The notes below the pieces were generated by a model. The model made no database searches. It was not told the origin of the DNA and saw only the letters and a program-made list of their open reading frames with translations. The translations under genes and the position numbers were made by a program. DNA of 64,000 bases from a virus (taxonomy: Duplodnaviria > Heunggongvirae > Uroviricota > Caudoviricetes), in the IMG/VR virus record IMGVR_UViG_2541047850_000005, positions 3,554-67,553 of that record, one strand, 5' to 3'. Positions 21,411-52,212 of this stretch are shown one piece after another (the first letter of the stretch is position 1; every line of letters starts with the position of its first letter).

Positions 21411-22005
21411 TTACTGCTTGTTATAAACAAAACCAATATCTTTCTTGTGAGGCATATCTGCTGCGGAAAAAGCTGCGATCTTCGCGAGTCGATCACATAT
21501 TTCATTTTCACGATGCCCGGCGTGACCTTTAACCCACTTCCAGCGAACATTATGTCGACTTGCGGCCTCATCCAGACGCTTCCACAGATCAACATTCTTT
21601 ACCGGTTTTTTGTCAGAAGTCATCCATCCATTGCGTTTCCACCATTTCATCCACTGTGTCATGCCGTTTTTCAGATACTGGCTATCAGAGTGCAAAATAA
21701 CGTTGCATGGATATTTCAAACGCTCCAGCCCGATAAGTGCCCCCATCATCTCCATGCGGTTATTGGTGGTGCTATGAAAACCATCTGAGAACTCGCGTTC
21801 CTCACCACGATACTGAAGAACGATACCGTAACCGCCCGGGCCACCCGGATTTTTAAGGCAAGAGCCATCACTGAAGATTTTCACGGTTTTAAGCTGGGGA
21901 TTGAACTCTACGACAGGCGTTGTGGGATTGGTACGGGGAGAATTTTTGTTTTTGGCTTTTTTGCGAGTTTTTGCTTGCGATCGGGCTGGTGTCTTCGTCG
22001 TCATA
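21411..22005 (-). CDS. rnhA: ribonuclease HI-like
   Basis: [22 protein letters not shown]…[10 protein letters not shown]…[18 protein letters not shown] are the RNase H DEDD-type motifs; start set at MTTKTPA after an AGGAG SD. Confidence 0.8.
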
Positions 22006-22588
22006 TAAACTCCTGAATCAAGCGCCGCGCCGATTTTTTTTTCCTCGCGCGTGCGCACACGCGTGCGTGTTAATAATTATTAAAATAAACAAATTACTTC
22101 CCAGAACAGGTTTTTATAAACCTGAACTGAACGAACGAAGTGAGTGAAGTTCACCTCGAACGAAGTGAGAGGTTGTCTTTTCAGGTAATACTCTCCCAGG
22201 GAGGTGAGTATAAAATTCCTCACCAACCTGGTCGTTTCATAACCTGAAAAGTTATGGTCTAAGTCTACTGCCAGCTTAGACTTGGGAAGTTATGGATGAC
22301 AGCACCCCAGAACCGAGATCTTCCCACACTTTATGAAGGGGAGTACTGGATTCAACCTCTCGAAACACCCCAGACTCGACAATCATAAAGTGACCCTTGT
22401 CTCTGCTCACTTTGGTTCCCCCTTCCCCGACACCTAAACGGCACCGGTTCTACGCTGGTAGTGAGCTTTTTAAACCTGACGCCAGTGACGCTTACCCCCA
22501 CCCATCAGGTCGAGCCTCCAGTCTACGACTGGAAACAATCAGATCTTAGCACTTACAATTCACTTTATGAATAGTTTGTACTTATCTA
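22006..22588 (-). other. ORF-free, structure-rich segment (candidate non-coding RNA)
   Basis: About 580 bp with no ORF of 60 aa or more on either strand in a densely packed region; several hairpins and tandem GAACGAAGTGAG repeats. Confidence 0.3.
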
Positions 22589-22843: not shown

Positions 22844-22927
22844 AAAATCGATTTTAAAGCGTCTGGGAAGGGGGTCTAGTGGATTCTGTAGTGATGTTCA
22901 GGTCTGGGAGTCTCTGATACAAAACAG

Positions 22928-23003: not shown

Positions 23004-23597
23004 CTAAGCAGCCTTCTTTGATGCTCTTTTTTTTCTGACCACATTCGCAGGATCATACCCTCCCAGACTTTTCATGACGTCCAAAGGGATCTTGCTTATA
23101 GAGTGCCCAGCGTCCTGACAGAATCCTCGAAAAACAACGAGCATACTGCCACCGGGGTTGATGTTTACTTCTACCTGACCCAAATTGACGTCAGGCTCGA
23201 CAAACGCTACGCGGCCACCAGACAGAATAATCGTCTCATTCGCATACTCTGTTGCACGCTCATACCACTTTGTATCGAGGGATTGAGGAATTAGCATCAC
23301 TGTTGTAACTCCGCGAGCCTGCTCACGTATAGCCGCATCAATCCAGGGGGAGATTTTGGAGTAGGGTGGATTGAGGAAGGCAATTGTACCTGGCTGCCCC
23401 CATTCAGATTTCAAAGCATCGCGCTCAACGCCTATGAAAATAGGCAGCTTTGCATTGTCCTTGTTGCAGGCAACGTCAACATCAAATGTCACTCCAAGAT
23501 AACGTTGAATGGCAGAAAACAGCCAATCAGGTGTTCTCCAGAGATCACGAAGAGAGTTGTCGCGCTTTCGCTGTTTGATTTTTTCGGCTGCAATCAT
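23004..23597 (-). CDS. phage-type Dam-like N6-adenine DNA methyltransferase
   Basis: 197 aa with NPPYS motif (FLNPPYSKISPW) and the short single-domain architecture of phage N6A methyltransferases. Confidence 0.7.
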   Translation of the reverse strand: MIAAEKIKQRKRDNSLRDLWRTPDWLFSAIQRYLGVTFDVDVACNKDNAKLPIFIGVERDALKSEWGQPGTIAFLNPPYSKISPWIDAAIREQARGVTTVMLIPQSLDTKWYERATEYANETIILSGGRVAFVEPDVNLGQVEVNINPGGSMLVVFRGFCQDAGHSISKIPLDVMKSLGGYDPANVVRKKRASKKAA

Positions 23598-23780: not shown

Positions 23781-24590
23781 TCATCCAATAGTGTACTCCG
23801 CGACAAACTTCTTAACGATCGGTGATTCTTCGTTCAATGTTAGATTTCCACCGTCTCTAACAGCAATTCCTGTAGCTGGAAATACAGCCATCATTTGCCC
23901 AGCCTGAGTTGACGCAGTGTTAAGCGGATACGGTTTTTCTGGATTGCTCATTAAAGCAATCTTAATACTATTACTTGTAGCCTTCTTTTCTGTGAGAAGG
24001 TGTCTCATGGAAATTACCGTGTAAACACTAATATCTGGACCTCCGCTAAACCAATTAAGAAGATTTAATATCTTATCCTTCGCTTTGACAGGCGCGTTTT
24101 CGTAAGCGTCTAAGAAAATATCTTTTTCTAAGCCTGCTTTATTGAAAAACGAATCATCTTTATCACTTAAAGTAAAACGAGGACCTCTTGCAACACGAGC
24201 TTTTTTATTTGTATTGCTATCATTTGACTGTTGAACTTTTAATTCATCATTAACCTCAACACACTCTTCAACCTCAATAAATCCCAATTGTTCTGGCTCG
24301 TTTTCGGCAGCTTCAACACTTTCAGCGTTAATTACGTTTATAGGCTCATGCGCTAACTCCAACTCATTTAAAGCAGAGCTGAAATCACCTGCTTTTTCTT
24401 CATTGAACAGTTCTTCGGCAACATCATCAGAACTCATGGCTACGCCAGCATCGAGGCCGAGAAGCAGATCGTCAATATCATCAGTATTTTCAACCTGTGC
24501 AGCTTTTTTTACTGGTTCATCAAGTGATTGCAACATGGCTGTCAGCTCATCCAGATCATCATTTGTCATTACATTTTCAACCGAACTCAT
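23781..24590 (-). CDS. hypothetical protein with acidic N-terminal half (269 aa)
   Basis: ORF track. Confidence 0.45.
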   Translation of the reverse strand: MSSVENVMTNDDLDELTAMLQSLDEPVKKAAQVENTDDIDDLLLGLDAGVAMSSDDVAEELFNEEKAGDFSSALNELELAHEPINVINAESVEAAENEPEQLGFIEVEECVEVNDELKVQQSNDSNTNKKARVARGPRFTLSDKDDSFFNKAGLEKDIFLDAYENAPVKAKDKILNLLNWFSGGPDISVYTVISMRHLLTEKKATSNSIKIALMSNPEKPYPLNTASTQAGQMMAVFPATGIAVRDGGNLTLNEESPIVKKFVAEYTIG

Positions 24591-25798: not shown

Positions 25799-26443
25799 CT
25801 AATGAACGGTCACTCGGCCACAGAACCGGTTTTCTATCTTTTCTACAGCGTTATCTAGCACTCTCATCACTGATCTGGCTCTTGCTTCAACCGTGCGATA
25901 TCGGTTGGAAACGACGAAGGTTTGCAGATCCCCCCTTTGCGGATGCAGGTGAATTTTTGTCAGTTCCCCGCACATCAACGCATCAATACGAGCGACATAC
26001 AGACGGTCTAATGATGCTCGTTGTGATCGCAAGTAATCTCGCTCTGAGAGAGCGACTCCCGGGCGTAGGCCAGCAATGGCGTTAAAGTTTGAAATAGCAG
26101 TTTTGTGGCAAAACTTTTCGATATCGAGGGCTAACTCAATACATCGATCTTCATTGGTATGGCCGACCAAATCCAACGTGTAGGCCATAACATCAGCAGG
26201 TGTGCGATCGATAACAAAGCCTTCAACACCACGCGTAAGTAGCTCTATATGCTTTGCTATTTCCATTTGAATCTGAAGCCGCTCATATAGAGGCATAGAC
26301 TCACCTACTCGAACACCGAGTCGGCTCATCAAACTTCCGACACCAGCATCCACGTAAGGGATTCCGTAATGTTTGTCGATATATTTTGCCAGGGTTGTTT
26401 TCCCACTGCCCTGAGCACCAGTGATCCCAATCCGGTAATCCAT
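25799..26443 (-). CDS. P-loop NTPase, putative (deoxy)nucleotide kinase
   Basis: Walker A GITGAQGSGKTTLAKYI and a DRT motif; sits in the thyA-folA precursor cluster. Confidence 0.5.
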   Translation of the reverse strand: MDYRIGITGAQGSGKTTLAKYIDKHYGIPYVDAGVGSLMSRLGVRVGESMPLYERLQIQMEIAKHIELLTRGVEGFVIDRTPADVMAYTLDLVGHTNEDRCIELALDIEKFCHKTAISNFNAIAGLRPGVALSERDYLRSQRASLDRLYVARIDALMCGELTKIHLHPQRGDLQTFVVSNRYRTVEARARSVMRVLDNAVEKIENRFCGRVTVH

Positions 26444-26919
26444 TACGACCTTCTGTATACGATCTGCGAAAAGCCAGGCTCTTCCTCGCTGGCTCGTTGG
26501 GTAAAAACTGTTTCAACAGGCACAAAGCCTAAATTACGCATCATGCTTGCCGGGAAGAATGCATCGGCGTTTGGCACATCAACGCCGATGTGGGAGAGCC
26601 AAATCTCTTCAACATGCGGCATGAATAGCGAGTAAATTTGTTCCCCGCCAATCACCCACACAGGCTCTGGTAATCGCAACACATCATCCACACCAGCAGG
26701 GTAGAATCCATTTGGTACAAAGCCATGAGAGCGCGTCAAAACGAGGTTATGACGCTCTGGAAGAGGGCGTTTGAGACTTTCCATCGTTTTACGCCCCATA
26801 ACGACAGTGGCGTTTTTGGTGAGTCTCTTAAATAGCTTCAGATCGGTAGAACAACGCCAGGGCAGTTCGTTCGCTATGCCGATCTCATAGTTACGGCCAA
26901 CAGCAGCTATCATCTTCAT
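26443..26919 (-). CDS. folA: dihydrofolate reductase
   Basis: MKMIAAVGRNYEIGIANELPW…VVMGRKTMESL…LVLTRS matches the DHFR fold signature; 158 aa. Confidence 0.8.
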   Translation of the reverse strand: MKMIAAVGRNYEIGIANELPWRCSTDLKLFKRLTKNATVVMGRKTMESLKRPLPERHNLVLTRSHGFVPNGFYPAGVDDVLRLPEPVWVIGGEQIYSLFMPHVEEIWLSHIGVDVPNADAFFPASMMRNLGFVPVETVFTQRASEEEPGFSQIVYRRS

Positions 26920-27332
26920 TTGCTCACCTCATAGATGACCGGTCTATGATGAGAGTCAGCTAAAGCGGCACGGAGTCGAGGATCGTGCACCAGCGCAGCG
27001 ATAAGCAGATCGCCTTTATGCTCCGCTAATGTGCGCTTAATATGCTTCTCATAACTGGTGCCATTCGGTACGAGATGAAGCCAGTCGTAATCAACGCCAA
27101 AATCTTTCAGCCATCGTTTAGTGGGCGCTTCAAGAGTTTCAGAGCGGCTACTGATAAGCACCACTTCAGCCCCTGAGCGAGCAAAACCACGCAACATACG
27201 GCTGGTGGGGAAAATGAGTTCATCACCGGCAATGAGCTGGTCTGCATCCGTGTCAGGTACAGATTTACGATGGCTGGTATTTGCCAGCACACCTTCAATT
27301 TCGCATAAGACATACATACCTCTTGCCATATC
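26916..27332 (-). CDS. hypothetical protein (possible nucleotide-metabolism enzyme)
   Basis: ORF trimmed to MARGMYVL…; coupled between thyA-like and folA-like genes; no confident motif. Confidence 0.35.
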   Translation of the reverse strand, partial: DMARGMYVLCEIEGVLANTSHRKSVPDTDADQLIAGDELIFPTSRMLRGFARSGAEVVLISSRSETLEAPTKRWLKDFGVDYDWLHLVPNGTSYEKHIKRTLAEHKGDLLIAALVHDPRLRAALADSHHRPVIYEVSK

Positions 27333-28434
27333 ACACCGCCACTGGAACCTTGATCCACGGTAGAGGGTCATAGCCAAGAATCAGAATATCGTCCCATTTG
27401 AAATCATCCAGCTCAGACCATTCATGAGGGAAAATAACGACCGGATCTGAATGCTCTGGAGCCTGTCGTTTCATTAGCTCACACACACCTTCCATGTGGT
27501 TGTTGTACAAATGCACGTCAAAGCCAAAATGCACAAATGCACCGGCCATGTGACCCGTAATCTTCGCGAGAAAATGAGTGAGAATGCCATAGCCAGCAAT
27601 ATTGAATGGCATACCAACAAAAGTGTCTACGCTACGCTGTACGAGGCAGGAGTTGAGGATGCGTTTGGGGATTCCAAGTTCATCCAGTTCAGTTTCAGTA
27701 ACACTGCCGTCCATCTCCAGATCGTATAGCATCTTGGTGTAGATAGACTCATAACCGAGGCGACTGTGTTGAAGACCAATGTCAGTTGCCATCGTTAAAC
27801 GGGTTTCAAAATCAAGCTCACGACTCCACAAAGAGAAGACAAAGTGGCAAGGTGGCAGTTTCATATCCTCAAGCTCGCCTACGTTCCATGCGTTAAGCAT
27901 GATGCGACGATCGGTAGGGTTCGTGCGCAGTGTGTCGACAATACGCTGTAGCTGATCGATTTCACGGGACAGCACTACGCGATCTTCACTGATACCCAGG
28001 TATCCCTCGACTTTGTACCCGCGTTCACGGAAAGTAGCGATCTTGCTCAGATATTCACTATGGCTCACGATGCGGGTATCTTCCCATCGACGCCACTGCT
28101 TACCGTAAACCGGCCCCAAATCGCCATTCTCATCGGCCCATGCATCCCAAATCTTAACGCCGTTATCCTTAAGAAATTGGATGTTGCCCGTGCCTTTCAG
28201 ATACCACTCAAGTTCGACAAGCAGTGGTTTAAGATTTACCGCCTTTCCAGAAATAAGCGGCACAGTCCCACCAGTAAGCATGTAGTAAGAGGGAACGTAG
28301 CAGGTGCTTAAAGTACCAGTGCCTGTGCGATCATCAGTCTGCACGCCGCTTTTAAGCACCGTCTCAATAACTTTTGCATACGATGCGTTTGTTACCTGAC
28401 CGTTCGTATGCTCACGATTCAAAAGGAGTGACAT
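27331..28434 (-). CDS. thyA: thymidylate synthase (ThyA family) with two internal insertions
   Basis: DRTGTGT, WADENGDLGPVYGKQWR (as in E. coli ThyA), catalytic PPCH, MPFNIAGY, GFDVHLYNNH; 367 aa against about 264 for E. coli ThyA. Confidence 0.8.
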   Translation of the reverse strand: MSLLLNREHTNGQVTNASYAKVIETVLKSGVQTDDRTGTGTLSTCYVPSYYMLTGGTVPLISGKAVNLKPLLVELEWYLKGTGNIQFLKDNGVKIWDAWADENGDLGPVYGKQWRRWEDTRIVSHSEYLSKIATFRERGYKVEGYLGISEDRVVLSREIDQLQRIVDTLRTNPTDRRIMLNAWNVGELEDMKLPPCHFVFSLWSRELDFETRLTMATDIGLQHSRLGYESIYTKMLYDLEMDGSVTETELDELGIPKRILNSCLVQRSVDTFVGMPFNIAGYGILTHFLAKITGHMAGAFVHFGFDVHLYNNHMEGVCELMKRQAPEHSDPVVIFPHEWSELDDFKWDDILILGYDPLPWIKVPVAV

Positions 28435-28601: not shown

Positions 28602-29471
28602 TTATTTTTTGATCATTCCGTACATTGCTGAGGCTTTAGCTTGCTCAACAAAGGAGGATAAATCGACATCACTATAGGTTGGAGACTTCAGAATCTTTCC
28701 ATCGGAAATTCGAAAACCGATCATCTTATCGGTGCCATCAGCATGGCGGAATCCCAGATCTGAAGAGTCGTATTTGCAGTTGGCCACAGCCTGGCGACGT
28801 TCCTCGACATCAGCAGGCCATAATTTTGTCATGTTAGACCGATGAATTTCGCCAACCAGCTCGACTACATTGATACCGAGGAAATCAGCCAGTCGATAGG
28901 TCATCATGCACGCCACATAGATTTTGTTCATGACACGGCGCAGTTCCTGAATCAGCTCAGAATCCTTAACAGTCTTGTTCTCAAGTTTATCTGCCAGCTC
29001 TTCGAGCATACATGACGCCTCACGAGCTTCCTGAAATGGCATTGCCATATCATCGAAAACAGTGTTACCGGGCACAAAAATTGTCTGCATAAAGCGATCA
29101 ATGCTCTGTTCCTGCGTGTAATAGGTCATGCCGGTAGAAATACCACCTTTGATGGCGACCATCGTACCAACACCAACGTATAAAAAGTCGGCCATTGCAT
29201 CCAGCAGTTGCTCAATATCCCCATTCATTGCAGCTGGAATACCTTCCACTACAGCTTCTTCATGAATCAGGCTTGCACGGAGACGAAGCAGCTCTGGTGT
29301 CGGCATAACGCGTCTCGGATGCTGGAAGAGTTCATGAAACTGATCGACCATCTTGTAAATACTTTCAGTAGCTACACCATGACCTTCATGCAACTCATAT
29401 GGTTCTGGCTTAAATCCAATGAGACGATCGGTGGCAAGTTTCAGGTGGTCAGTCAGTTTGGTAAAGTTCAT
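28602..29471 (-). CDS. hypothetical protein, possibly all-alpha NTP pyrophosphohydrolase (MazG-like)
   Basis: ORF 28602..29669 trimmed to MNFTKLTD… because the upstream part overlaps the nrdB 3' end; Glu-rich helical motifs; weak assignment. Confidence 0.35.
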   Translation of the reverse strand: MNFTKLTDHLKLATDRLIGFKPEPYELHEGHGVATESIYKMVDQFHELFQHPRRVMPTPELLRLRASLIHEEAVVEGIPAAMNGDIEQLLDAMADFLYVGVGTMVAIKGGISTGMTYYTQEQSIDRFMQTIFVPGNTVFDDMAMPFQEAREASCMLEELADKLENKTVKDSELIQELRRVMNKIYVACMMTYRLADFLGINVVELVGEIHRSNMTKLWPADVEERRQAVANCKYDSSDLGFRHADGTDKMIGFRISDGKILKSPTYSDVDLSSFVEQAKASAMYGMIKK

Positions 29472-29548
29472 GCTAGTTTTGTTCCTTCTTAATTCTTGTG
29501 ATCCATTGTGGCCCAGCGTTGCCAGGCCACATAATGCTTTGTATCGGT

Positions 29549-30694
29549 TTACAGGTCTGCAAACTGGCTTAGAGAAGCCTTGTCCACGGTAGAATCGATC
29601 TGACCTACCAGATATGTGCTTTGCTCTGCCTCTTGTGGTGCAATTTGCAGTGTGTCGGTTAACAACCACTTGTTCATCCAGACCAGCGGATCGGTGGTAA
29701 CCTCTGGAAATAAAGCCTTCAGGCCAAGACGATTCATAGCCAGATTGGTGCGGTATTTTACATAGGTCTTCAAAATATCCGCGTTTAAACCAATCATCGA
29801 ACCGTCTTTGAAGAGATACTCGGCCCAGTTCATTTCTTGTTCGGCGACTGATTTCATGGTGTCGTAAATGACGTTTTCTTCATCAGCAGCAATCTCTTTC
29901 CACAATAAACCTTCGCGACCGGTACGCATGAAGCGGATCATGCGTTCAGTTCCTTCGCAATGCAGAGCTTCATCACGGGCAATAAAGCGCATAATTTTGG
30001 TGTTACCCTCAAGCAACTTCCGTTCGCCAAAGGCAAACGTACATGCAAAACTTACATAGAAACGGATCGCCTCAAGCGCATTAATGGACACCAACGTGCG
30101 GAAAAGCTGACGGTGCAAAGGGTATGGCTCCCAGCCATATTCATTTACGTACAGACGTTCAAACTCCTTCTCACCTAACGACTGGCGCTCGCAGGTCATC
30201 CCATAAAGCCTGTCATATTCAGCAGAGATACTGATCGCTCGGTTGATGATTTCTTCATCCGTAACAATACCGTCAAAAACAATGCTCGGATCGTCCACCA
30301 TGCCACGAATAATGTGGGTGTAGCTGCGGCTATGGATAGTCTCAGAGAAAGACCATGTTTCAACCCACGTTTCCAGTTCAGGAATAGAGATAAGCGGCAG
30401 CAGCGTTGCATTTGGGCTACGTCCCTGAACTGAATCGAGTAACGTTTGATAACGGAGATTGCTCAGAAAAATGTGACGTTCGTGGTCCCGCAGCTTCGTG
30501 TTGAAGTCGATACGATCGCTCGAAATATCAACTTCTTCCGGCCGCCAGAAGAAAGACAATTGACGTTCAATCAACTTTTCAAAATCACGGTATTTTTGCT
30601 GATCGTAACGTGCCACGTTGACAGATTGTCCGAGGAACATAGGCTCTTTGGTTGCATCATTAGCACCCAAACGGAACGTTGAATATGACATGTG
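29549..30694 (-). CDS. nrdB: ribonucleotide reductase class Ia beta subunit (NrdB)
   Basis: …[20 protein letters not shown]…[11 protein letters not shown]… collinear with E. coli NrdB; start set at MSYSTFRL. Confidence 0.9.
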
Positions 30695-30796
30695 TTTTTC
30701 CTTTTGCTTTTTGATGTGTTTAAACAAGTTGTTATCCTATTTGTTTAAACAAGGCTTACAAATCAAAGAGAAGGTGGGGATACACCCCACCATATG

Positions 30797-38721: not shown

Positions 38722-38943
38722 TTATTCACATATCCACAGGATAGATCCTAATAAAGAGATCCATAGATAGATCCTTGTATAGATCAAATAAGATCCCCGA
38801 TCGCTGTAAGCCGCGCCACGACTGGTCTGAAGCCATGTTCATGTATGCTGTCAGCGGTAATTGATAGTCTGTCAGCGGTTCACCGTATGCTGCCAACTGT
38901 TTTTGGTATTCTGTCAGCGGCAAATCAAGTATGCTGTCAGCGG
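38722..38943 (+). promoter_or_regulatory. plasmid-type replication origin (DnaA boxes + GATC cluster + iterons)
   Basis: Tandem DnaA boxes TTATTCACA/TATCCACA (38722-38738), six GATC sites within 38744-38803, then 4-5 copies of iteron TATGCTGTCAGCGGT (38844-38943) ending 22 bp before the rep start. Confidence 0.7.
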
Positions 38944-38964
38944 TTGAATGACAAAGGTGTCCAC

Positions 38965-40590: not shown

Positions 40591-40638
40591 TGACGACTAT
40601 GAAATATGACTGCGGAACGTGCCGCAGTCAGTTTGCAT

Positions 40639-43377: not shown

Positions 43378-45717
43378 TTACTCTTCTACTGACTCGGTGG
43401 GGTTGTCTTTTGCTCTTCGGTCGTCGATTGCCTGCAAAGCCGCAATGATTTCAGCCAGTGGCTTCTCCCGATACATCTCGACGATCTGCGATTTGGTGTA
43501 TTTCTTGTCACCAATTTCAACTCGCCCGCTGGCGTTCTTTGGCAGGTATCCTTCTTCCAGCATGTACTCGACGAGCGATTCGATAACGTCGAGGCCACGA
43601 GTAGGATCGAAGTAGAATTTCCAGGTGCATTTGCCATACGGTGGTGCAACTTTGTTTTTGATGCATTCTGCGCCTACGTCCTGGCCGATCTTCTCTTTAC
43701 CATCCTTCATCACCGATGCACCAAGACGGATACGTACAGAAGCGTAGAACTTCGGTGAATCTCCACCTGGCGACGTAGTAGGGTCGCCAAACATTACACC
43801 GATTTTTGTGCGAACCTGATTCAAGAAGATGATGCAGGCGTTGTATTTGCGTGCCCACAAAGCCAGAGTAGGGAAGTTCGCACTTGTCGCACGAGCCAGT
43901 GCCGTATTGTCGTTCATGTTTAGCTGATCTTTGTCTTTGGCAGTGCCTTCAGCCATCTTTTCGAACTTCTCGGCTTTGGAGTTCGGAACCATAGACGCAA
44001 GTGAGTCAGCCACGATACAGATAGGTGCTGATTCAGGAATAAGCTCTTCATCACGTACCAATTTAAGAATTGTGCCGATCAACTCTACAGAGTCTTCGAA
44101 GGTATCAGGCTGCTTGTATACCCACTGACCGTCATCCTCATCTGCGTTCAGGCCATTGGCTACAGCCAGGCCAACGTCAAAACTGTTTTCATGATCGAGG
44201 AATACCGCCAGACCATCTTGTTTTTGAGCGGAGATCATCGCTGCTGTTGCAAGGAATGTGTTGTGGCTGATAATCCCGTTAGACCAGAAAGAGTGTGTTT
44301 CCGGCATCGCTACGTCGAACGTTGGTGCTTCACCTTCCTCAATAGCCACGACTTCGTCGTAGAATAAGTTAGAGCCAATTACCGCTGCCAGTTGTGCAAA
44401 CAGATGCTCGTTAAAACGATTCTTTCTGCCAATGAAGGAGACATAGATTTCTCGCAGTTTGTCTATTCCGACACGATCGCCGCGGCCAATAACGTGGTCT
44501 ACCAGAGCGTAGTCTTCACGGGTGGTCTTGGTGAGCGACTCGTAGAGTGATTTCACTAAGCCGCTGATGTGCGGAACATAGCCTGAGTAAGTGCGGTCAA
44601 AACCAATGTCCCGTTTGGTTGCCACTGATAAACGTGCCGGAGATTCGAAACCAATCGTTGACAGAAAAAGGTCGTAATTAGAGCCACTGAATGACAGCCG
44701 GTAATATGTATTTTCATAACCCGCGACGTGTTTTTCAGAGATAGTTGACGTAATCCCCAGATTCAGGAGCATGAGGCGAATTTGCTGTAGCAGCAGCCCA
44801 CTCGCGCTCACAACCTCAATGCAGCGACCACCATTGACGTGGCATTCCAGCTCAAAGTAGCCGCGAAGGAATGCAATTTGAGCCTCGCTATTGGCGCGAC
44901 GCACACTCAACGGAACCTGCTTGCCAGCAGCTTTCTCATACTCCAGACCATATTCTTTAAAAAGCAGCGAACGCACCTCTTTGCTAAACAGCACATGGTC
45001 TTCCGAGCCGTTATGTTTTCTCGTAACTGGCATCTTGTCTGATACCAGCGAAATGAGGCGGTAGTACTCATCCTTGATGAATGGATCTGTGTTAGAAAAA
45101 TGCACAGAATTTTCAGAGGCCACGTATCCGTCAGCAATTAAATAGCCCATCAGTTTTGCGATATTGGCATCCAAGTGCTGATCGCCGAATTGATGTGTGC
45201 CAACCATTGAAGGAATCGTGTCGCCTACACTGATTTTTTCAGCATACCGCCAGACGATATTGCCTAAGTCGTCAACCACACGAATTGGGTGACGGAACGT
45301 AGCCTCGATGTAACCCCCTGATGCCAGCTTAATGCGCTTGAATTTGCGACGGTTGTTCCATGTCAGGTGTGAGGTTTTCTCTATCACGCCATTTTCATTG
45401 ATGAGTCCAACGTTATGCTCTACATCGCGAGTAGTGCATGTTGCTTTGTGCCCCTCAATCTCAAACAGTTCTTTCACTGTTACCATTCCACGCTCCGTCA
45501 GCAGCATGGTGTCTGCGGTAACACATTTCCCCGCACTTGGAGGACCGAATACTTCGACGATACGACCACATGGGAAACCGCCATCGTAACGACCGGAAAT
45601 CGCTTTGTTTAACGGAGGAAAGCCTGTGTCAATCCAATGAGTTACTTTCTGAATTTCGTCGTTGCTACCGATTTTCTTTTTCAGAGCAAGTGCCAGTGCG
45701 GATTTTCCTTTTGCCAT
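43378..45717 (-). CDS. recA: RecA-family recombinase interrupted by an intein
   Basis: N-extein ends …VFGPPSAGK, C-extein resumes TFLATAAM…FLNQVRTKIGVMFGDPTTSPGG…FYASVRIRLG (collinear with bacterial RecA); 779 aa total, 357 aa after predicted splicing. Confidence 0.85.
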   Translation of the reverse strand: MAKGKSALALALKKKIGSNDEIQKVTHWIDTGFPPLNKAISGRYDGGFPCGRIVEVFGPPSAGKCVTADTMLLTERGMVTVKELFEIEGHKATCTTRDVEHNVGLINENGVIEKTSHLTWNNRRKFKRIKLASGGYIEATFRHPIRVVDDLGNIVWRYAEKISVGDTIPSMVGTHQFGDQHLDANIAKLMGYLIADGYVASENSVHFSNTDPFIKDEYYRLISLVSDKMPVTRKHNGSEDHVLFSKEVRSLLFKEYGLEYEKAAGKQVPLSVRRANSEAQIAFLRGYFELECHVNGGRCIEVVSASGLLLQQIRLMLLNLGITSTISEKHVAGYENTYYRLSFSGSNYDLFLSTIGFESPARLSVATKRDIGFDRTYSGYVPHISGLVKSLYESLTKTTREDYALVDHVIGRGDRVGIDKLREIYVSFIGRKNRFNEHLFAQLAAVIGSNLFYDEVVAIEEGEAPTFDVAMPETHSFWSNGIISHNTFLATAAMISAQKQDGLAVFLDHENSFDVGLAVANGLNADEDDGQWVYKQPDTFEDSVELIGTILKLVRDEELIPESAPICIVADSLASMVPNSKAEKFEKMAEGTAKDKDQLNMNDNTALARATSANFPTLALWARKYNACIIFLNQVRTKIGVMFGDPTTSPGGDSPKFYASVRIRLGASVMKDGKEKIGQDVGAECIKNKVAPPYGKCTWKFYFDPTRGLDVIESLVEYMLEEGYLPKNASGRVEIGDKKYTKSQIVEMYREKPLAEIIAALQAIDDRRAKDNPTESVEE
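44260..45525 (-). mobile_element. intein with LAGLIDADG homing endonuclease, inserted in the RecA P-loop
   Basis: Begins CVTADTMLL, contains ATFRHP (TxxH), LMGYLIADGYV and FLRGYFELECHV, ends GIISHN followed by Thr; about 422 aa. Confidence 0.85.
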
Positions 45718-45719: not shown

Positions 45720-45992
45720 TCAGGCTCCTTTTGTTTCGTTGATTCGTTTTAAAGCGGCGGATTCGTCGAATACAATCGCATCGTGGTTAAGGTGTCTGGA
45801 TACACGAGCGAGGATTTTTACGACCTGCTCGCTGACTAATCCAAACTCGCGATCTGTCGCTTTCATTCCGGCAGCGTCTAGAATTGACGGCAGTGCGATG
45901 ACAGCGTACTCACCGTGATAAAAGACAATCTCTTTTGCCAGTTGGGTAGGGGTGGTTGTAGCGCCATTAATAATCGATTTAAGCATTAGCAA
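45720..45992 (-). CDS. hypothetical protein (90 aa)
   Basis: ORF track; coupled to RecA and FEN genes. Confidence 0.4.
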   Translation of the reverse strand: MLMLKSIINGATTTPTQLAKEIVFYHGEYAVIALPSILDAAGMKATDREFGLVSEQVVKILARVSRHLNHDAIVFDESAALKRINETKGA

Positions 45993-46981
45993 TACCTTTC
46001 GAATGGAAGAACAAACACTTCAAGGTCTTCAAGGAACGAACGGAAATTCAGCTCGTAGCACAGTTGCTCGAATGCTTTCACGTCACGATTGCCTTTGATT
46101 GTTTCGATTTCGGTAGGCGGAAACTTCGTCTCAATCAGGTTCATTAGCGTGATGTTTCTCTTGAACGCTTCGAGCATTCGACAGCCTGTTTTCTCGTTGA
46201 AGGCATTCTTCGCTAGTTTGTTGAAGGCGGTCTTATGACGCCCTTTATTAACCACGATTGAGCCGTCGTTGATGCCGCGTACCATCGTTGCGACACTTCC
46301 CCATTCATGCAGTAGCTCTTTCGCACCGCCAGCACCAATGCCACCAACACCGCTAATGTTGTCCGATTTATCGCCTTGTAATGCTTTTGCTTCCAAAAAT
46401 GCGCGAGGAGTAGCGAATCCTGTCAGCTCCGCAAATTGCTCAAAATTAACCTGCTTGTTTTTGGCGTCTTCGCGCAGGCTTACCCAGCTTACGTTTTCGC
46501 GAACTAACTGAAGCCAGTCGCTATCGCCTGTTAACAGATAGATGTGTTCAACGATTGGCTGCGGTGCAATGCTGGCTACCAGCAGCCCGGCCAGATCATC
46601 CGCTTCTGCATCTTTTGCAATGAGTTGGGTAACTCCAAGCGCGGTCATCATTTTGAGGATGTATGGCTTCTGGATAGCAAAGCCTTCCTTCATCTTTTTC
46701 ATATCAGGATCGTCGTCGCGATTTGCTTTGTAGTCCGGGTAAAAGTCGCGACGCTTGTCACTAAATCCATCCCAAAGAATCATAGGTCGGGCATGGAGGA
46801 TGGAGGCATAACGACGGACGTTCTTAACAAAGCCGAAAGCAGCCTGTACTTCCATTTCGCCGTTGTGCAATTTGTCAGATTGTTGGTGGTAATAACCCAG
46901 GCTATTGCCATCTACGAAGAGATAATTCTCCGGTACATTCCTTCCAAAAAGTAAGGCGTCCGTAGACGCCTTACTGGTCAC
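45986..46981 (-). CDS. 5'-3' exonuclease / flap endonuclease (FEN, Pol I 5'-nuclease family)
   Basis: LFVDGNSLGYY, AEADDLAG, LTGDSDWLQL, QGDKSDNISGVGGIG; start is GTG at 46981 and the first codons contain a hairpin, so the exact start is uncertain. Confidence 0.75.
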   Translation of the reverse strand: MTSKASTDALLFGRNVPENYLFVDGNSLGYYHQQSDKLHNGEMEVQAAFGFVKNVRRYASILHARPMILWDGFSDKRRDFYPDYKANRDDDPDMKKMKEGFAIQKPYILKMMTALGVTQLIAKDAEADDLAGLLVASIAPQPIVEHIYLLTGDSDWLQLVRENVSWVSLREDAKNKQVNFEQFAELTGFATPRAFLEAKALQGDKSDNISGVGGIGAGGAKELLHEWGSVATMVRGINDGSIVVNKGRHKTAFNKLAKNAFNEKTGCRMLEAFKRNITLMNLIETKFPPTEIETIKGNRDVKAFEQLCYELNFRSFLEDLEVFVLPFERYC

Positions 46982-46990: not shown

Positions 46991-48019
46991 TTAAAGAGAG
47001 TCCAGCTCTCTCAGTAGGTCATCCAGACCTTCATCTTCCGTCGCAGATGCGGCTGCTACAGATGTCGCTGCGACTGCTTCAGACTCTTTGACTGATACTG
47101 CAACGGCAGCGGAACTTGCTTCTGGTTTAAATTCAGTTTCAACGGCACGGAGGATTTCTTCATCAACCAGACTGGTTGGTTCAGAAGCTGGGGTGTGAGC
47201 GGTAGCTACAGCAGTCGCACCCTCCGTATGACCAGTGACAGAGCCAAATCCAGGCAGTGCCGCAGCCGATGTTTTCGCGGTTGAGGAAATTGCTGGTGCA
47301 GATGCTGCGGCAGTTGGTGCAGCGATGCCAATCAGACGACCCATAGTGCGAACTGTCGACAGAAGACGAGTTTCATCAGCCTGATTTGCGTATGCGATCA
47401 GATCATGCTGGGTGTTCCAGAATTTATCTTCGATATCGCCTTTGTAGACTTTACGCTTAGGCGAGACGTCATATTTGGTATCGCGACCAGAGCCAGTACG
47501 TTTAATCAGGAATGCGTAGCCTTCCTCTTTGCTCAGTGGATTACCGATATCATCAGCGATGTCTTCGGTGATTGCTTTGCAGATATCATCGAATACAGTA
47601 GACGGCAGCTCGATTAACTGGCATTTCTCAGCATCTGCGAAATCCTCACGAGCAGAAAGAATGCCGTTGACCAGGTAGCGAGGAGTGGCACGCATTTGAC
47701 CGATGCGTTCTTCCATTGCTTTGTTACCCTTGTGACGAGCGCGACCTTCCATCACCATTTCGCATAGCTGACAAGCGCGACCGTGAGTATGTTGCTCACA
47801 AATATAAGCGTTGGTTGCTTCTTTACCTTCCTCGTTCTGATACTTAACGTAGTGCATACCGAAAGTCTGGAAGAACTTACCGTTTGGGTCGTCTTTATTC
47901 GGGAAGATGCGGATATAGTTGACGCCGTCTTTTAAGCGAGTCAGATCAACGTTGTTACCACGTTTGGCGGCAATGTCTTCACGAGTTTTGTTAAGCAAAT
48001 CAAGTAATGTCTTAGACAT
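46991..48019 (-). CDS. putative single-stranded DNA-binding protein (gp32-like)
   Basis: Cys/His cluster CEQHTHGRACQLC, long Ala/Ser-rich linker and acidic C-terminal tail …EDEGLDDLLRELDSL typical of SSB interaction tails; inference. Confidence 0.45.
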   Translation of the reverse strand: MSKTLLDLLNKTREDIAAKRGNNVDLTRLKDGVNYIRIFPNKDDPNGKFFQTFGMHYVKYQNEEGKEATNAYICEQHTHGRACQLCEMVMEGRARHKGNKAMEERIGQMRATPRYLVNGILSAREDFADAEKCQLIELPSTVFDDICKAITEDIADDIGNPLSKEEGYAFLIKRTGSGRDTKYDVSPKRKVYKGDIEDKFWNTQHDLIAYANQADETRLLSTVRTMGRLIGIAAPTAAASAPAISSTAKTSAAALPGFGSVTGHTEGATAVATAHTPASEPTSLVDEEILRAVETEFKPEASSAAVAVSVKESEAVAATSVAAASATEDEGLDDLLRELDSL

Positions 48020-48136: not shown

Positions 48137-48568
48137 TCAACGGGGAGTAATAAAGCGTTCAGAGCCTAATCGCTCTAATTCAACGATGGCCATCTTTGAC
48201 GCCTGAACGATCATGTCTCGGCGATGCGAAAAGGCGGCGACAGCATGTTTGTATATGTCTGCGATGTGCCGTGCTTCATCCAACTTCTGCCGTTTAGACA
48301 GATACTGTGGGTTTGTTTTAACCTTAGCGTCCAGTACAGATTCGTTGAACTTAATGCCGTTCATACTCAAGTTCTTACGCTCTGTGTCGTATAGCTTTGC
48401 TTCAACAGCTTCAAGGTTAAGTTTTGCTTCTGCGACACTTCTTTCTGCATGGGCGAGTTTTGAGCCATATTCCATCAACAGGCGGGGTTGTCTACGCCAG
48501 ACTTCCTCCAGATTGTCTCGGTCAAACTCGAGATCAGACATTATTTTCTCGTAAATATCGGTGATCAT
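48137..48568 (-). CDS. hypothetical helical protein (possible recombination mediator)
   Basis: ORF track, 143 aa; sits between the SSB-like and DnaE genes. Confidence 0.35.
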   Translation of the reverse strand: MITDIYEKIMSDLEFDRDNLEEVWRRQPRLLMEYGSKLAHAERSVAEAKLNLEAVEAKLYDTERKNLSMNGIKFNESVLDAKVKTNPQYLSKRQKLDEARHIADIYKHAVAAFSHRRDMIVQASKMAIVELERLGSERFITPR

Positions 48569-48693: not shown

Positions 48694-51600
48694 TCACGAC
48701 TTAATAGTTTCTGCTACGTCGGCTAATATCGCTTCTAGTCGTTCTCCCTCTTCAGGTCTGAAGTAAAGAATGTTGGGGTTAAACCCGTAAAAGACAGTAA
48801 CGTCAAGGTCTGGAAGATACTCCTTCCTGCCGACCAAATCGGATGGCTTGTTTTTGTTGTTAAACAATGCCGTTGCCCGGCTGCCACACGTCAGCACATA
48901 GGTCGGACGCACCAGATTGATCTCTTCACGTATAAAGTCGGTGAACTGGCCGATCTCGTCTTTGGTGTAGTCTTTTTCTTTGTCTTTAACCTTCTTGCAA
49001 ACGCCTGTGACATAGAGATCGCCCATGCGTAAATCTCCAGCCGTCAATAGCTTGGCCTTAAAGTCGTCGTATCCGTTCTCCATAAAGTAACCTGTTCGAG
49101 CATCATTGCCGTTCGCATTGTCCAGAATGATCATGATTTTCGGCTTAATACCAATGCTGGGGCGGATTAGTTCATCACCTAAGCCCATTTCAGCCGCCAT
49201 CCGTGTCATGAGCACGTTAATCTCAGCCGAACGTTTGGGGTTCATCTCAAACGGACGTGAGGCTTTAACTGCGTCTATGACAAGATTTCCCATCAATTCC
49301 GCTTGGTCGCGGAGACGTTCTGGATCAGTTGCTGGCAGACTACCTGGCTCGATGGATGCAAACGCACCTACTTTTCGCAGTGATTCGCGCACTCGACTAT
49401 TACAGGCACGTTTCTCGACAGCTTCTTCGAATTGCGCCAGTGACTCGAATTTGCCGCCAACTTTTTCTCGCGCTCTCATGATGGCTTGGCAGCCATTCTC
49501 AGAACACCCCTTCACAGCAGAGAAGGGTGCATACAGAACCTGGCTGCCATCTTCAAGCGTGCGGATCTCGATTCGGTTAGATGACACGTTAACGTCTGGT
49601 GGCAATACGCGAATACCATAGGTCAGCGCATCTTTAACCAGCCCTTGGTGTTTATCTTCGCCAAGAATAGTGAGAGCAGCAGCGAAAAACTCTGCGGGAT
49701 AATGAGTTTTCAACCACATAGATTGATAACTGATTAAGGAGTAAGCAACAGAGTGTGATTTGTTGAACTGGTAGGCACCATTTTTTTCGAATGCGGTCCA
49801 GATCTCCTTCGCTTTCATCTCTGATAGGCCAGGATGTGACGCTGTAACGCGTACTGCGTTTATAGGTAGTTTTGCGCCGTGCTCAAGTGCCTCTTCGACA
49901 GTTTTCAGAGTTCCGTCTTCGCATTTAAAATGTTCCGCACGGTGAATGCGCTGTGTAGTGCCATCTTCCAGCTCAACGTCTATCCAGCCAGCTTGAGCCT
50001 GAACGATGAACTTCTCGCCCATGCTCTTCATTTTTTCCATGTTCTTCTTACCGATTGCGGAACGCACACCGTCAGCTTCAGCCATTGTGAAGCCGGCAAG
50101 CAATCGAGTCGCGTTCATCGTCTGTTCCTGATAGAGAATCACGCCATTTGTTTCCGCGGTAAGTTCATCAAGAACGGGGTGTAATGATTCCGGCGTCATA
50201 AAGCCTTTGGCGACAGAAACATAGTCATCCAACATGCCTGATTGAATTGGCCCCGGCCGGAAGAGCGCAGTTGTAGCGACGACCGTTTTAAAGCTCATTG
50301 GCTCAATTCCACCACCTAAATCTTTAAGCAGCTTGCGCATTGGGCCTGATTCAAGCTGGAAAACACCTTGAGTGTACCCAGCAGCAAAACCATCCAGTAC
50401 CTTGCGATCTTCAAGAGAAATGGCATCAAGATTGATATCCTCACCTGTGTTCTCTTTAATGTAGCGTTTTGCACTATCGAGCAAATCGAGAGTCGCCAGG
50501 CCAAGTACATCCAGCTTAATTAGGCCCATAGCCTCGCAGTAACGCTTGTCAAATGCGATACAACGCGCGTCACCACGGCGTTCAACCGGTGTACGTTCTG
50601 TCAAGGGAACACCTGCTACGATCATCCCTGCCGCATGTCTGCCAAAGCCACGCATAATGCTTTGTAACTTACAGGCTGCATTGAATGCATCAGGATATTT
50701 TGTCGCGTATTTGTCGAGACTTGCTAGTTGTTCGCGCAGCTCTTCCAATGGAAGGCTATCATCCTCGACGTTCTTCAGTTCTTTTGATACCGCCATATCC
50801 GCAGCATCGACACCGTAAATACGCGCAGTGTCACGCAGCGCAGAAGCAGCGCCCAGATAGGTGAAGTTCGGAATACCGGCAACGTAATCTTCGCCATAGC
50901 GTTCATTCAGATACTCGATCACCTCATGACGACGTGCCTGACTGAAGTCTAAATCAGCATCCGGCAAGTCGAGACGCTCAGGGTTGATGAAACGCTCAAA
51001 CAGAAGACCGTGACGGATTGGGTCGACGTTGGTTATGCCTATGCACCACGCCACCAGAGAACCGGCAGAGGAACCACGACCAGGCCCAACGGGAATGCCA
51101 GTTTCACGACTATGATTCATCAGATCGCGCACCATCAGGAAGTAACCACAGAATCCCAGGCGAGTCAGCGTGTCCATTTCGTACTTTAGCCGCTCAACAT
51201 AAACCCTGTTCTCAGAAGCAGGTGGTGTGTATCCAAACTCTTTTGTGGTAAGACGTTTACGCAGCCCTGCAACAGCCAGTTTCATCAGCGTTGCAGGTTC
51301 GTCGTCTGCCATCTTGGGCAGTGCTGGTGGCAATTCATGCCAGCGCCATGTGCAGGCATCGATAATGGTATCCTGCGTTGTTGAGGCCATTGCAGCTGTT
51401 ACCGGCACATCCATGCGAACGGAGAAGGCTTTAAGCGACTCAAGGAGATGGCGGCGACCATTGACGGCGTTATCTCGCTGGTGGGGGATACGCAGACGAT
51501 GCGGCTGGTCGATTTTTATGTTGTTCGTAACCATGTGCGCAATGTCTTTAATGTCTGCATCGTCGATCGATTCGTAATAAGCGGGATAGAACGCTACTGG

Positions 51601-52212
51601 CTCTATTTTCAGTGCGCTGGCTACTTTCATCGCTCGGACGTTAATCTGGTCGTAGAATGGGGTAGGGTGCGGATAAACCACGCTATAGAAGTTGTCTTTT
51701 CCACCCGCTGTAATCAGTGTGCTTATGATTTTTGCAAAATCGTTGCGTTGGAACACGCTACCGATGTCGGAAGTGAGCAGGATGATGTTGCCTTTGGCAT
51801 ATGTAGAAACCAACTGTTCGAGCGAGAGACGCGGTACAAAGTAGAACTGTTCTCGTGTGTTGGCCACCGTCATTAGTTCGCAGATGTCGCGATATCCTTG
51901 CTCATTTTTAATTAGAGCGGTAAACGAGTAGTTACGTCCCCGCTCTAATGATTCCATACATCTCATAGATTCTTTAGCAAGTTTAGCACGGTGCTCGTAT
52001 GTGGGATCATCAACAATGTTTAGTTTCACACCACAAATAACCGCCATGTCGTCACCAGCGGCACGTTGTAGTGGAATAACGCTCGCAATATTCATGCTAT
52101 CTGCTGAAATTACAGCGGTGTAGCCAGCTTCTCTGGCAATCTTCACCGCGTTTTCTGCTTTTAAAGCCGACTCCCCAAGTGAGAAGTCAGTTCGAACCAT
52201 CAGTGCCTTCAT
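48694..52212 (-). CDS. dnaE: DNA polymerase III alpha subunit (DnaE family)
   Basis: 1172 aa; GIPVGPGRGSSAGSLVAWCIGITNVDP…LLFERFINPER and AYQFNKSHSVAYSLISYQSMWLKTHYPAEFF match the DnaE polymerase core; N-terminal PHP-like domain. Confidence 0.9.
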   Translation of the reverse strand: MKALMVRTDFSLGESALKAENAVKIAREAGYTAVISADSMNIASVIPLQRAAGDDMAVICGVKLNIVDDPTYEHRAKLAKESMRCMESLERGRNYSFTALIKNEQGYRDICELMTVANTREQFYFVPRLSLEQLVSTYAKGNIILLTSDIGSVFQRNDFAKIISTLITAGGKDNFYSVVYPHPTPFYDQINVRAMKVASALKIEPVAFYPAYYESIDDADIKDIAHMVTNNIKIDQPHRLRIPHQRDNAVNGRRHLLESLKAFSVRMDVPVTAAMASTTQDTIIDACTWRWHELPPALPKMADDEPATLMKLAVAGLRKRLTTKEFGYTPPASENRVYVERLKYEMDTLTRLGFCGYFLMVRDLMNHSRETGIPVGPGRGSSAGSLVAWCIGITNVDPIRHGLLFERFINPERLDLPDADLDFSQARRHEVIEYLNERYGEDYVAGIPNFTYLGAASALRDTARIYGVDAADMAVSKELKNVEDDSLPLEELREQLASLDKYATKYPDAFNAACKLQSIMRGFGRHAAGMIVAGVPLTERTPVERRGDARCIAFDKRYCEAMGLIKLDVLGLATLDLLDSAKRYIKENTGEDINLDAISLEDRKVLDGFAAGYTQGVFQLESGPMRKLLKDLGGGIEPMSFKTVVATTALFRPGPIQSGMLDDYVSVAKGFMTPESLHPVLDELTAETNGVILYQEQTMNATRLLAGFTMAEADGVRSAIGKKNMEKMKSMGEKFIVQAQAGWIDVELEDGTTQRIHRAEHFKCEDGTLKTVEEALEHGAKLPINAVRVTASHPGLSEMKAKEIWTAFEKNGAYQFNKSHSVAYSLISYQSMWLKTHYPAEFFAAALTILGEDKHQGLVKDALTYGIRVLPPDVNVSSNRIEIRTLEDGSQVLYAPFSAVKGCSENGCQAIMRAREKVGGKFESLAQFEEAVEKRACNSRVRESLRKVGAFASIEPGSLPATDPERLRDQAELMGNLVIDAVKASRPFEMNPKRSAEINVLMTRMAAEMGLGDELIRPSIGIKPKIMIILDNANGNDARTGYFMENGYDDFKAKLLTAGDLRMGDLYVTGVCKKVKDKEKDYTKDEIGQFTDFIREEINLVRPTYVLTCGSRATALFNNKNKPSDLVGRKEYLPDLDVTVFYGFNPNILYFRPEEGERLEAILADVAETIKS

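Follow-up and report, generated by a model that had tools for sequence, protein, structure and literature searches.

An SSU5-like phage-plasmid of Escherichia coli and its genes for replication, recombination and nucleotide supply

In the literature, elements of the kind analysed here are counted among the phage-plasmids, in the SSU5 supergroup (Pfeifer et al. 2021, PMC7969092), whose member Cyrano (pLF82) has a copy number of ∼5.5, shows 39-fold induction by ciprofloxacin and produces siphovirus particles (PMC9928086). Here we describe a 64,000-nucleotide stretch of viral DNA (positions 3,554 to 67,553 of IMG/VR record IMGVR_UViG_2541047850_000005; hereafter the window), of which positions 21411-52212 hold a block of replication genes. 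We conclude that this region belongs to an SSU5-like phage-plasmid of E. coli and is its arm for replication, recombination and nucleotide supply. We further propose, with a probability of about 0.8, that two separate replication systems are combined in it, a Rep-iteron origin that would serve the plasmid state and a block of minus-strand genes that would serve lytic growth.

Each of these systems has a well-described counterpart. The P1 plasmid replicon is made up of oriR, with DnaA boxes, GATC repeats and five iterons, then repA, then incA with nine iterons. The phage T4 replication and recombination set includes gp32, UvsX/RecA, UvsY, UvsW, gp46/47 (the SbcCD analogue), RNase H, NrdAB, Td and Frd.

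Identity and relatives of the element

A nucleotide search with window positions 28000-52500 matches 822 plasmid records, mostly non-mobilizable and from Escherichia, Klebsiella, Enterobacter, Yersinia and Salmonella; among the matches listed, the best-covering plasmids are ∼100-128 kb in size. The best plasmid match is NZ_CP027358.1, a 110-kb E. coli plasmid that is 98.0% identical over 100% of the query. The cultured phage PhiR41_1 is 99.9% identical over the aligned 65% of the query, Cyrano is 96.7% identical, and Salmonella phage SSU5 is 78.8% identical over 82% of these 24.5 kb. Gene content and order are the same in the deposited annotations of the relatives. The attribution to SSU5/pHCM2-like phage-plasmids, which an earlier note on this DNA had made, is thus borne out by nucleotide identity and by synteny with SSU5, Cyrano, PhiR41_1 and the plasmids. 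Average GC (guanine plus cytosine) content is ∼46% across the window, and a scan for tRNA genes found none in it. The siphovirus structural, packaging, lysis and partition genes lie outside the window, and in Cyrano are found beyond the region that matches it.

SSU5, pHCM2, Cyrano, PhiR41_1 and p09EL50 carry the same genes in the same order as the window, which differs from members of the supergroup only in alleles or cargo. The rep gene has 1215 nt here and 1056 nt in Cyrano; as to replicon type, rep_cluster_488 stands against IncFIB in an Enterobacter relative. The dnaE gene is contiguous, although split in some relatives; recA contains an intein that p09EL50 lacks; no HicAB pair adjoins dnaE; and a fimbrial cluster and an IS2 copy follow the integrase gene. 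Publications and deposited, annotated records already cover the element, the genes it carries and the fact that it is a phage-plasmid, and as filed the block holds nothing new. A literature search on the replication genes of pHCM2 returned nothing relevant.

The earlier note had asked whether the best homologues might instead be chromosomal housekeeping genes of an unrelated bacterium. The dnaE gene is present in 244 of 5,426 complete E. coli genomes (∼4.5%), and all 250 places at which it matches are on plasmids and none on a chromosome; nor does the window itself include any chromosomal flank. Recent capture of enterobacterial chromosomal genes, or a misassembly that joined them to phage DNA, might be suspected from the presence of metG and apbC, typical housekeeping genes, at 6323-9614. 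Both, however, belong to the conserved backbone of the plasmid family, and a chimeric origin was rejected on that ground. The proteins of the block also speak against such a source, since the match of DnaE to E. coli alpha reaches no more than E=4e-109 and is confined to the core, the single-stranded DNA binding protein (SSB) is of the gp32 type, and RecA, the RuvC-like and the DnaQ-like proteins score far under the NCBIfam cutoffs for cellular equivalogs. We give a chromosomal origin practically no credence. MetG (6323-8485, minus strand) is a full-length methionyl-tRNA synthetase with its tRNA-binding domain; divergent from it, at 8514-9614 on the plus strand, is an ApbC/Mrp-type Fe-S carrier ATPase that is named 'MinD' in the Cyrano record.

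The Rep-iteron origin and the minus-strand block

Gene assignments (Table 1) are based on Pfam, PHROGs and NCBIfam profile searches of open reading frames (ORFs). Twenty-seven minus-strand ORFs occupy 83.5% of 21411-52212, and every replication and precursor gene listed in the earlier note is present there on that strand, although its 'nucleotide kinase' is supported at the level of fold only and its 'SSB-like protein' can be refined to a T4 gp32-type SSB. Its description of the block as lying all on one strand does not hold, as the Rep initiator is encoded on the plus strand. The rep gene is the sole verified plus-strand gene of the block, and its product has no match among the NCBIfam models.

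Upstream of rep, two tandem DnaA-box-like sites, TTATTCACA and ATATCCACA, at 38722-38738 adjoin six GATC sites within ∼60 bp (38744-38802). This GATC cluster is the densest in the window, with 6 per 100 bp compared with a mean of 0.41. Seventeen co-oriented copies of a 16-nt iteron, consensus GTATGCTGTCAGCGGT, flank the gene, five of them at 38843-38944 and the other twelve downstream, where they form an array like that of incA. The pattern has 19 matches in the window where 0.77 are expected, and 17 of the 19 are the co-oriented copies around rep. The longest rep ORF shares its first 100 nt with the first array, and the true start therefore probably lies downstream, at ATG 38948 or 38966.

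DnaA-box-like sites, GATC cluster, five iterons, rep and second iteron array occur in the same order as in the P1 plasmid replicon, with twelve downstream iterons here compared with nine in P1. The likeness is one of the order of elements only, and Rep matches Pfam Rep3_N weakly (E=5e-9). On this anatomy, replication in the plasmid state would be host-dependent and of an iteron-controlled theta type, of the P1 or RepFIB kind. The element also encodes its own Dam-type methyltransferase, which together with the GATC-dense origin suggests that initiation may be subject to methylation-sensitive control.

The minus-strand genes are organised differently. Strong minus-strand hairpin terminators follow the DnaE, RecA, SPFH, RuvC-like, NrdA, MazG-like and RNase H genes, and the block must therefore consist of several co-directional units rather than one operon. 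The block has fewer sigma-70-like promoter matches than shuffling leads one to expect (17 compared with 31, and 17 compared with 28). The replication genes do not appear in the table of Cyrano prophage genes that are transcribed above background in lysogeny (PMC9928086).

In its functional categories the block resembles the T4-type sets, and its gene content follows the logic by which large virulent phages assemble their replication and recombination modules. The resemblance extends to the gp32-family SSB, to a UvsY-like match, to the UvsW of the relative Cyrano and to the presence of homing elements within replication genes (compare PMC2988022). The polymerase, in contrast, is a C-family DnaE where T4 has the B-family gp43, the window has no gp45 clamp or gp44/62 loader, and the element is temperate and plasmid-borne.

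The earlier note saw no helicase, ligase, clamp or clamp loader in the window, and this is confirmed: none was found among the window ORFs scanned against Pfam and PHROG, and none is named over the same span in the annotation of near-identical relatives. In the curated Cyrano record, helicase, primase and ligase genes lie a few kb past the integrase, co-oriented with the block, and a UvsW helicase lies past the opposite end of the window-matching region; the ligase of NZ_CP027358.1 is likewise beyond the integrase side. The Cyrano annotation names neither a clamp nor a clamp loader. The earlier description of the toolkit as near-autonomous is therefore fair but understated, only clamp and loader being missing from that relative. 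A PHROG 'clamp loader' match for the ORF at 25799-26443 (E=4.6e-11) was rejected, as the AlphaFold2 (AF2) model of this protein resembles only kinases among the top 50 Foldseek matches. A scan for the canonical clamp-binding motif Qxx[LMI]x?F gave no match in any block protein, DnaE included.

We take the element to be a temperate siphovirus that persists in E. coli as a low-copy plasmid. In the plasmid mode, Rep, encoded between origin and copy-control array, would bring in the host replisome; theta replication at low copy number would follow, and the iterons would control the copy number as they do in the P1 plasmid replicon. In the lytic mode, the minus-strand genes would provide a phage replisome and its precursors. 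DnaE and the DnaQ-like exonuclease would carry out synthesis and proofreading on a template coated by the gp32-type SSB, and RNase H and FEN would remove Okazaki primers. RecA, the UvsY-like protein, SbcCD and RuvC would support recombination-dependent replication and the processing of concatemers. NrdAB, ThyA, dihydrofolate reductase (DHFR), the kinase-fold protein and the MazG-like protein would supply deoxynucleoside triphosphates, dTTP in particular, and sanitise the pool; helicase, primase, ligase and UvsW would come from genes like those that Cyrano encodes outside the stretch it shares with the window.

Lytic-cycle use is the best reading of the block, at the probability given above, because of the separate Rep-iteron origin, the depletion of promoters and the absence of the genes from the Cyrano lysogeny table. 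Some observations weigh against it. The division between lysogenic and lytic expression is taken from the transcriptome table of one relative, in which above-background genes only are listed. The DnaQ-like protein has no epsilon-alpha tether tail, so its partnership with DnaE is assumed. Helicase, primase and ligase are seen only in relatives, as the sequence of the present element ends inside a cargo insertion. The motif scan covers the canonical pattern only, and a non-canonical clamp contact is possible. Two conserved minus-strand ORFs, at 23781-24590 (269 aa) and 33765-34523 (252 aa), adjoin the DnaQ-like and SbcC genes and match only PHROG families of unknown function, with no match in Pfam or in PDB sequence searches; either could hide a processivity factor or an unrecognised component of the replisome.

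A different division of labour can also be considered, in which routine replication of the plasmid also falls to the DnaE machinery. Rep and the iterons would then be confined to initiation and copy control, and lysogens would express the toolkit. Such an arrangement would sit well with the location of Rep and the origin in the middle of the replication block and with the intactness of the block across hundreds of plasmids from ordinary isolates. Conservation, however, is equally expected for lytic-only genes of a functional phage, and the DnaA-box-like sites at the origin point to host-dependent initiation. As the scarcity of promoter-like sites and the silence of the Cyrano lysogeny table on every gene of the block also run counter to it, we consider routine use of the phage polymerase in the plasmid state distinctly improbable, and retain the proposed assignment of the minus-strand genes to lytic growth.

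Table 1. Features of the replication block and of the low-GC insertion, in window coordinates.
Feature	Position	Strand	Evidence or note
RNase H, RNase HI type, with N-terminal extension	21411-22058	-	Pfam RNase_H E=1.1e-44; rnhA in NZ_CP027358
Dam-type N6-adenine DNA methyltransferase	23004-23597	-	Pfam Dam E=1.5e-37; PHROG DNA methyltransferase E=2.7e-64
DnaQ-like DEDDh 3'-5' exonuclease, 185 aa	24751-25308	-	Pfam RNase_T E=1.1e-20
P-loop protein with nucleotide/nucleoside kinase fold, 214 aa	25799-26443	-	AF2 and Foldseek
Dihydrofolate reductase (DHFR)	26443-26919	-	Pfam DHFR_1 E=2.9e-34
HAD/PNKP-phosphatase-like protein, weak	26916-27377	-	Pfam HAD_PNKP E=8.9e-5, below cutoff; PHROG polynucleotide kinase E=8e-10
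ThyA, thymidylate synthase, 367 aa	27331-28434	-	Pfam Thymidylat_synt E=2.4e-79 (two stretches); NCBIfam thymidylate synthase models
MazG-like nucleoside triphosphate pyrophosphohydrolase	28602-29669	-	Pfam PRA-PH E=2.2e-8; Cyrano annotation
NrdB, ribonucleotide reductase small subunit	29549-30727	-	Pfam Ribonuc_red_sm E=5.5e-46
NrdA, class Ia large subunit	30797-33112	-	Pfam Ribonuc_red_lgC E=1.6e-131, lgN, ATP-cone
RuvC-like Holliday junction resolvase	33186-33755	-	PHROG 159 E=3e-57; NCBIfam RuvC E=0.005; no Pfam match
SbcC/Rad50-like ATPase	34513-36429	-	Pfam AAA_23, SMC_N, SbcC_Walker_B
SbcD/Mre11-like metallophosphoesterase	36659-37744	-	Pfam Metallophos E=8.3e-10; Cyrano annotation
Plasmid origin	38722-38944	+	DnaA-box-like sites, GATC cluster, five iterons
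Rep initiator, Rep3/RepB family	38845-40059	+	Pfam Rep3_N (WH1) E=5.2e-9; RefSeq 'RepB family plasmid replication initiator'
Twelve iterons downstream of rep, incA-like copy-control array	40059-40591	+	Pattern search
RecA-family recombinase, 779-aa ORF, intein-interrupted	43378-45717	-	Pfam RecA E=3e-36
LAGLIDADG intein, 422 aa, RecA residues 65-486	44260-45525	-	Read from sequence
FEN / 5'-3' exonuclease	45986-46981	-	Pfam 5_3_exonuc_N E=1e-23, 5_3_exonuc E=4.2e-12
T4 gp32-type single-stranded DNA binding protein	46991-48019	-	Pfam gp32 E=1.7e-66
UvsY-like recombination mediator, possible, weak	48137-48568	-	PHROG 231 E=1.1e-4; Cyrano annotation
DnaE-type polymerase, 1172 aa	48694-52212	-	Pfam PHP, DNA_pol3_alpha, DNA_pol3_finger, HHH_6
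Family-4-UDG-derived C-terminal domain of DnaE	48697-49155	-	Profile, AF2, Foldseek
AraC-family regulator	58408-59190		Within low-GC insertion
Fimbrial usher	59247-61727		Within low-GC insertion
PapD-type chaperone	61763-62452		Within low-GC insertion
Probable subunit	62518-63102		Within low-GC insertion
IS2 copy	starts near 63414		Within low-GC insertion

The DnaE polymerase and its glycosylase-derived tail

The polymerase shares with cellular Pol III alpha subunits, such as those of E. coli and Thermus, a PHP domain (residues 6-176), a polymerase core (309-571), fingers (574-740) and an HhH region (866-955). Its best PDB match is Thermus alpha, over the catalytic core only, followed by the Mycobacterium and E. 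coli alpha subunits (E=1e-121 to 1e-109). The model TIGR00594 is matched at 628 bits, above its cutoff of 434, whereas all the NCBIfam DnaE equivalog models score below theirs. Alignments with alpha end at about query residue 953 or, with a family profile, at residue 896 of E. coli alpha. The C-terminal OB fold and tau-binding domain of cellular alpha are missing, as is a canonical clamp-binding motif; the protein has instead a lineage-specific linker of ∼50 residues (∼740-791) and a C-terminal domain (∼1020-1172) derived from a uracil-DNA glycosylase (UDG).

Several lines of comparison identify this tail. It matches Pfam UDG at E=6e-4, below cutoff, and the NCBIfam family-4 model UDG_fam4 (TIGR00758) at E=1.7e-8, with 34 bits against a cutoff of 125. 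A profile built from close homologues finds four family-4 UDGs in the PDB at ∼1e-6, and one built from 21 diverse domains finds 4zbx at E=5e-21 and 1ui0 at E=1.6e-16. In an AF2 model the block-mean pLDDT (predicted local distance difference test) of the domain is mostly above 85, and the top 50 Foldseek matches of this model all belong to the UDG superfamily, with a best E of 2.7e-11 and target-normalised TM (template modelling) scores of 0.72-0.76. The fold and homology are those of family-4 UDGs (the 'phage SPO1 DNA polymerase-related protein') and of UdgX, whose entries are matched at 3e-12.

In contrast to the fold, the motifs of family-4 UDGs and UdgX are not conserved in the present DnaE, be it motif A, the histidine of motif B or the four cysteines that hold the Fe-S cluster. 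Where the solved enzymes have GEAPG or GEGPG as motif A, the aligned family profile reads l-D-c-p-s and the present protein LDNANG. The His-Pro of motif B aligns with Asn, Ser or Thr followed by Pro, and reads FNP here; the histidine is replaced by one of these three residues in the great majority of 92 domains. A CxxC pair and a third cysteine align with those of solved family-4 enzymes in distant members of the family but are lost in the SSU5 group, and the tail of the window DnaE has none of the Fe-S cysteines. The domain is thus derived from a family-4 UDG but, as judged from these motifs, lacks the sequence features expected of an active family-4 enzyme.

Could the tail nevertheless be a working glycosylase at the fork, rather than a structural or DNA-binding module? 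Besides the clear fold and homology, the acidic residue at the motif A position is invariant (D22 of the domain alignment, residue 1031 of DnaE; 81 of the 92 domains in the larger set) and most of the prolines are retained across the family; the MazG-like, ThyA and DHFR proteins of the block, all related to dUTP or dTTP, suggest selection against uracil in DNA. Set against these are the motif-B substitution in most of the domains, the altered motif A of the window protein and the loss of the cysteines in the SSU5 group where distant members retain them. We therefore regard an active glycosylase as unlikely.

Lacking the clamp- and tau-binding tail, ending in a degenerate UDG-derived domain, and with no clamp or loader found, this DnaE is probably not part of a host-type Pol III holoenzyme. 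The one precedent that we can cite for a UDG fold in the service of a replicative polymerase comes from vaccinia virus, where the UDG D4 together with A20 forms the processivity factor of the polymerase E9 (PMC1936997, PMC3946371, PMC10253040) and the replication role of D4 is described as independent of catalysis (PMC1936997). In both systems a UDG fold is physically coupled to a replicative polymerase and no sliding clamp is encoded by the virus. D4, however, is a separate subunit of another UDG family, tethered through A20 to a B-family polymerase, whereas the domain described here is family-4-derived and fused to a C-family polymerase, with a processivity role that is hypothetical. By analogy, the DnaE proteins of SSU5-, nickie- and RHEph10-type phages may form a class of clamp-independent C-family replicases in which the degenerate UDG tail acts as a DNA-tracking, processivity or uracil-sensing module, a counterpart of D4. 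We put this forward tentatively, as a proposal with the odds against it; if true, it would explain how phages of 100-120 kb can encode almost a whole replisome and yet neither clamp nor loader, and why the polymerase can be divided into a catalytic and an HhH-UDG piece.

The architecture is widespread. In a search of 1.84 billion proteins the UDG-like domain alone retrieves 134 representative clusters, of which 39 have at least 1050 aa, 30 have 370-435 aa and the rest are fragments or of intermediate size; among clusters of near-complete length the domain is at the extreme C-terminus. In cultured phages it ends the annotated DnaE genes of the SSU5 group and, at 25-29% identity, those of nickie-type Pseudomonas and RHEph10-type Rhizobium phages, all of ∼112-117 kb.

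The window carries a contiguous allele, but in one relative (L008, positions 2918-7170) dnaE is divided into a DnaE-N of 787 aa, with PHP, core and fingers, and a DnaE-C of 389 aa, with the HhH and UDG-like regions, separated by a gene for a 231-aa NUMOD4/HNH endonuclease. A second relative (L009, 3635-7176) also has a split gene, and the arrangement with HNH occurs in one complete E. coli genome in RefSeq. The split falls in the linker (window 49840-49995), which has no counterpart in Thermus alpha. The DnaE-C piece represents 1,459 member sequences and is called 'uracil-DNA glycosylase' in an NCBI source. Pieces of ∼390 aa account for 30 of the 134 clusters, down to ∼23% identity, which indicates that the two-piece form is widespread. 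A group I intron and a split intein were both rejected on size as the cause of the split: apart from 2 and 21 nt, the gap is taken up by the HNH ORF, and the two pieces sum to the contiguous protein, leaving no room for intein halves.

The RecA intein, other genes of the block and the window ends

The 779-aa RecA ORF aligns with E. coli RecA on either side of an insert that matches Pfam LAGLIDADG_3 (E=4.8e-18) and Intein_splicing (E=3e-11), and TIGR01445 and TIGR01443 score above their NCBIfam cutoffs for it. The insertion point lies within the Walker A motif, after Lys64 (GPPSAGK/C...SHN/TF), and removal of the insert restores GPPSAGKT. The residues required for splicing are present (C65, the block-B TFRH at residue 140, H485-N486 and the +1 nucleophile T487), and two LAGLIDADG motifs are found at residues 193 and 287. 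By these sequence criteria the insert is a homing-endonuclease intein, for which both splicing and cleavage are predicted. The intein-less RecA of p09EL50 has exactly 357 aa, 422 fewer.

A total of 248 plasmid records, from Escherichia, Klebsiella, Enterobacter and Citrobacter, contain the intein DNA, with identities that nearly always lie at 95-99%. One Enterobacter plasmid matches the intein at 93-99.5% identity but the flanking RecA and FEN sequence at only 75-85%, a sign of recent homing between lineages that have diverged. Some orthologues of the gene bear the RefSeq name 'intein-containing recombinase RecA'. The RecA of M. tuberculosis (NCBIfam NF007072) is likewise interrupted by a LAGLIDADG intein; here, however, the insertion site is the Walker A motif, and the match to NF007072 (98 bits against a cutoff of 1024) implies that the two inteins are independent. 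Often RefSeq calls the whole gene 'LAGLIDADG family homing endonuclease', which masks RecA. A literature search for RecA inteins in phage-plasmids returned nothing relevant.

Among the remaining proteins of the block, the DnaQ-like exonuclease has all five DEDDh residues intact (D9, E11, D99, H155 and D160). It aligns with residues 11-176 of the 243-aa E. coli epsilon (E=1.5e-10), lacks the C-terminal alpha-binding tail of that protein and matches the NCBIfam epsilon models below their cutoffs. In the protein encoded at 25799-26443, sequence matches span little beyond the P-loop (residues 9-16) and its surroundings. Its AF2 model has a pLDDT of 89 and its top 50 Foldseek matches, thymidylate, deoxynucleoside, shikimate and NadR kinases, include no clamp loader; the name 'nucleotide kinase' can thus be applied to the modelled fold only.

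ThyA exceeds the Pfam model in length by ∼100 aa, and its alignment with the model falls into separate stretches, which implies internal insertions; no intein signature was found in it. The label 'ThyX' in the Cyrano record is contradicted by the Pfam Thymidylat_synt match. The MazG-like gene is annotated as shorter, at 870 nt, in relatives, and the stronger PHROG matches of the possible UvsY-like protein are to families of unknown function. The DHFR family has already been discussed as a determinant of trimethoprim resistance: the SSU5 orthologue is dfrA51, which raises the minimum inhibitory concentration of trimethoprim when expressed from plasmids (PMC12217456). Directly upstream of dnaE, and co-oriented with it, are genes for a CobS-like AAA_5 ATPase (52393-53628) and a CobT-like VWA protein (53724-55832), both on the minus strand and conserved in relatives.

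Similarity to the family backbone stops at 58006, directly after the integrase gene, and 58007-64000 is an insertion of 35-41% GC that carries the fimbrial genes. The usher and chaperone are only ∼90% identical to their best plasmid match, in plasmids of pig E. coli, and none of the plasmid records spans as much as 80% of the insertion. At this position relatives have a glutaredoxin gene and tRNAs, followed by ligase, primase and helicase, and Cyrano has three tRNAs past its integrase where the window carries cargo instead. Two other genes bear on lysogeny: a fragment-sized ORF for an S24 (LexA-like) peptidase at 9652-10041 on the minus strand, and a helix-turn-helix (HTH) repressor-like gene at 56391-56777 on the plus strand, divergent from the integrase gene and annotated as a putative repressor in Cyrano. 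Both are probable lysogeny-control genes, which fits the ciprofloxacin inducibility of Cyrano.

Correct classification of this region has practical value, in that its DnaE, NrdAB, RecA, MetG and DHFR genes should not be taken as chromosomal. As far as we searched, there is no prior discussion of the DnaE architecture or of the mobile-element polymorphisms in these replication genes; a literature search of limited scope, which is not proof that there are none, found no paper on a DnaE-UDG fusion. What emerges is a widespread C-family replicase, natural as one or two polypeptides, in which the holoenzyme-docking tail has been exchanged for a UDG-derived domain. That tail is a modest but testable lead, and the enzyme a tractable system in which to ask how polymerases of the DnaE type can be processive when they have no sliding clamp.

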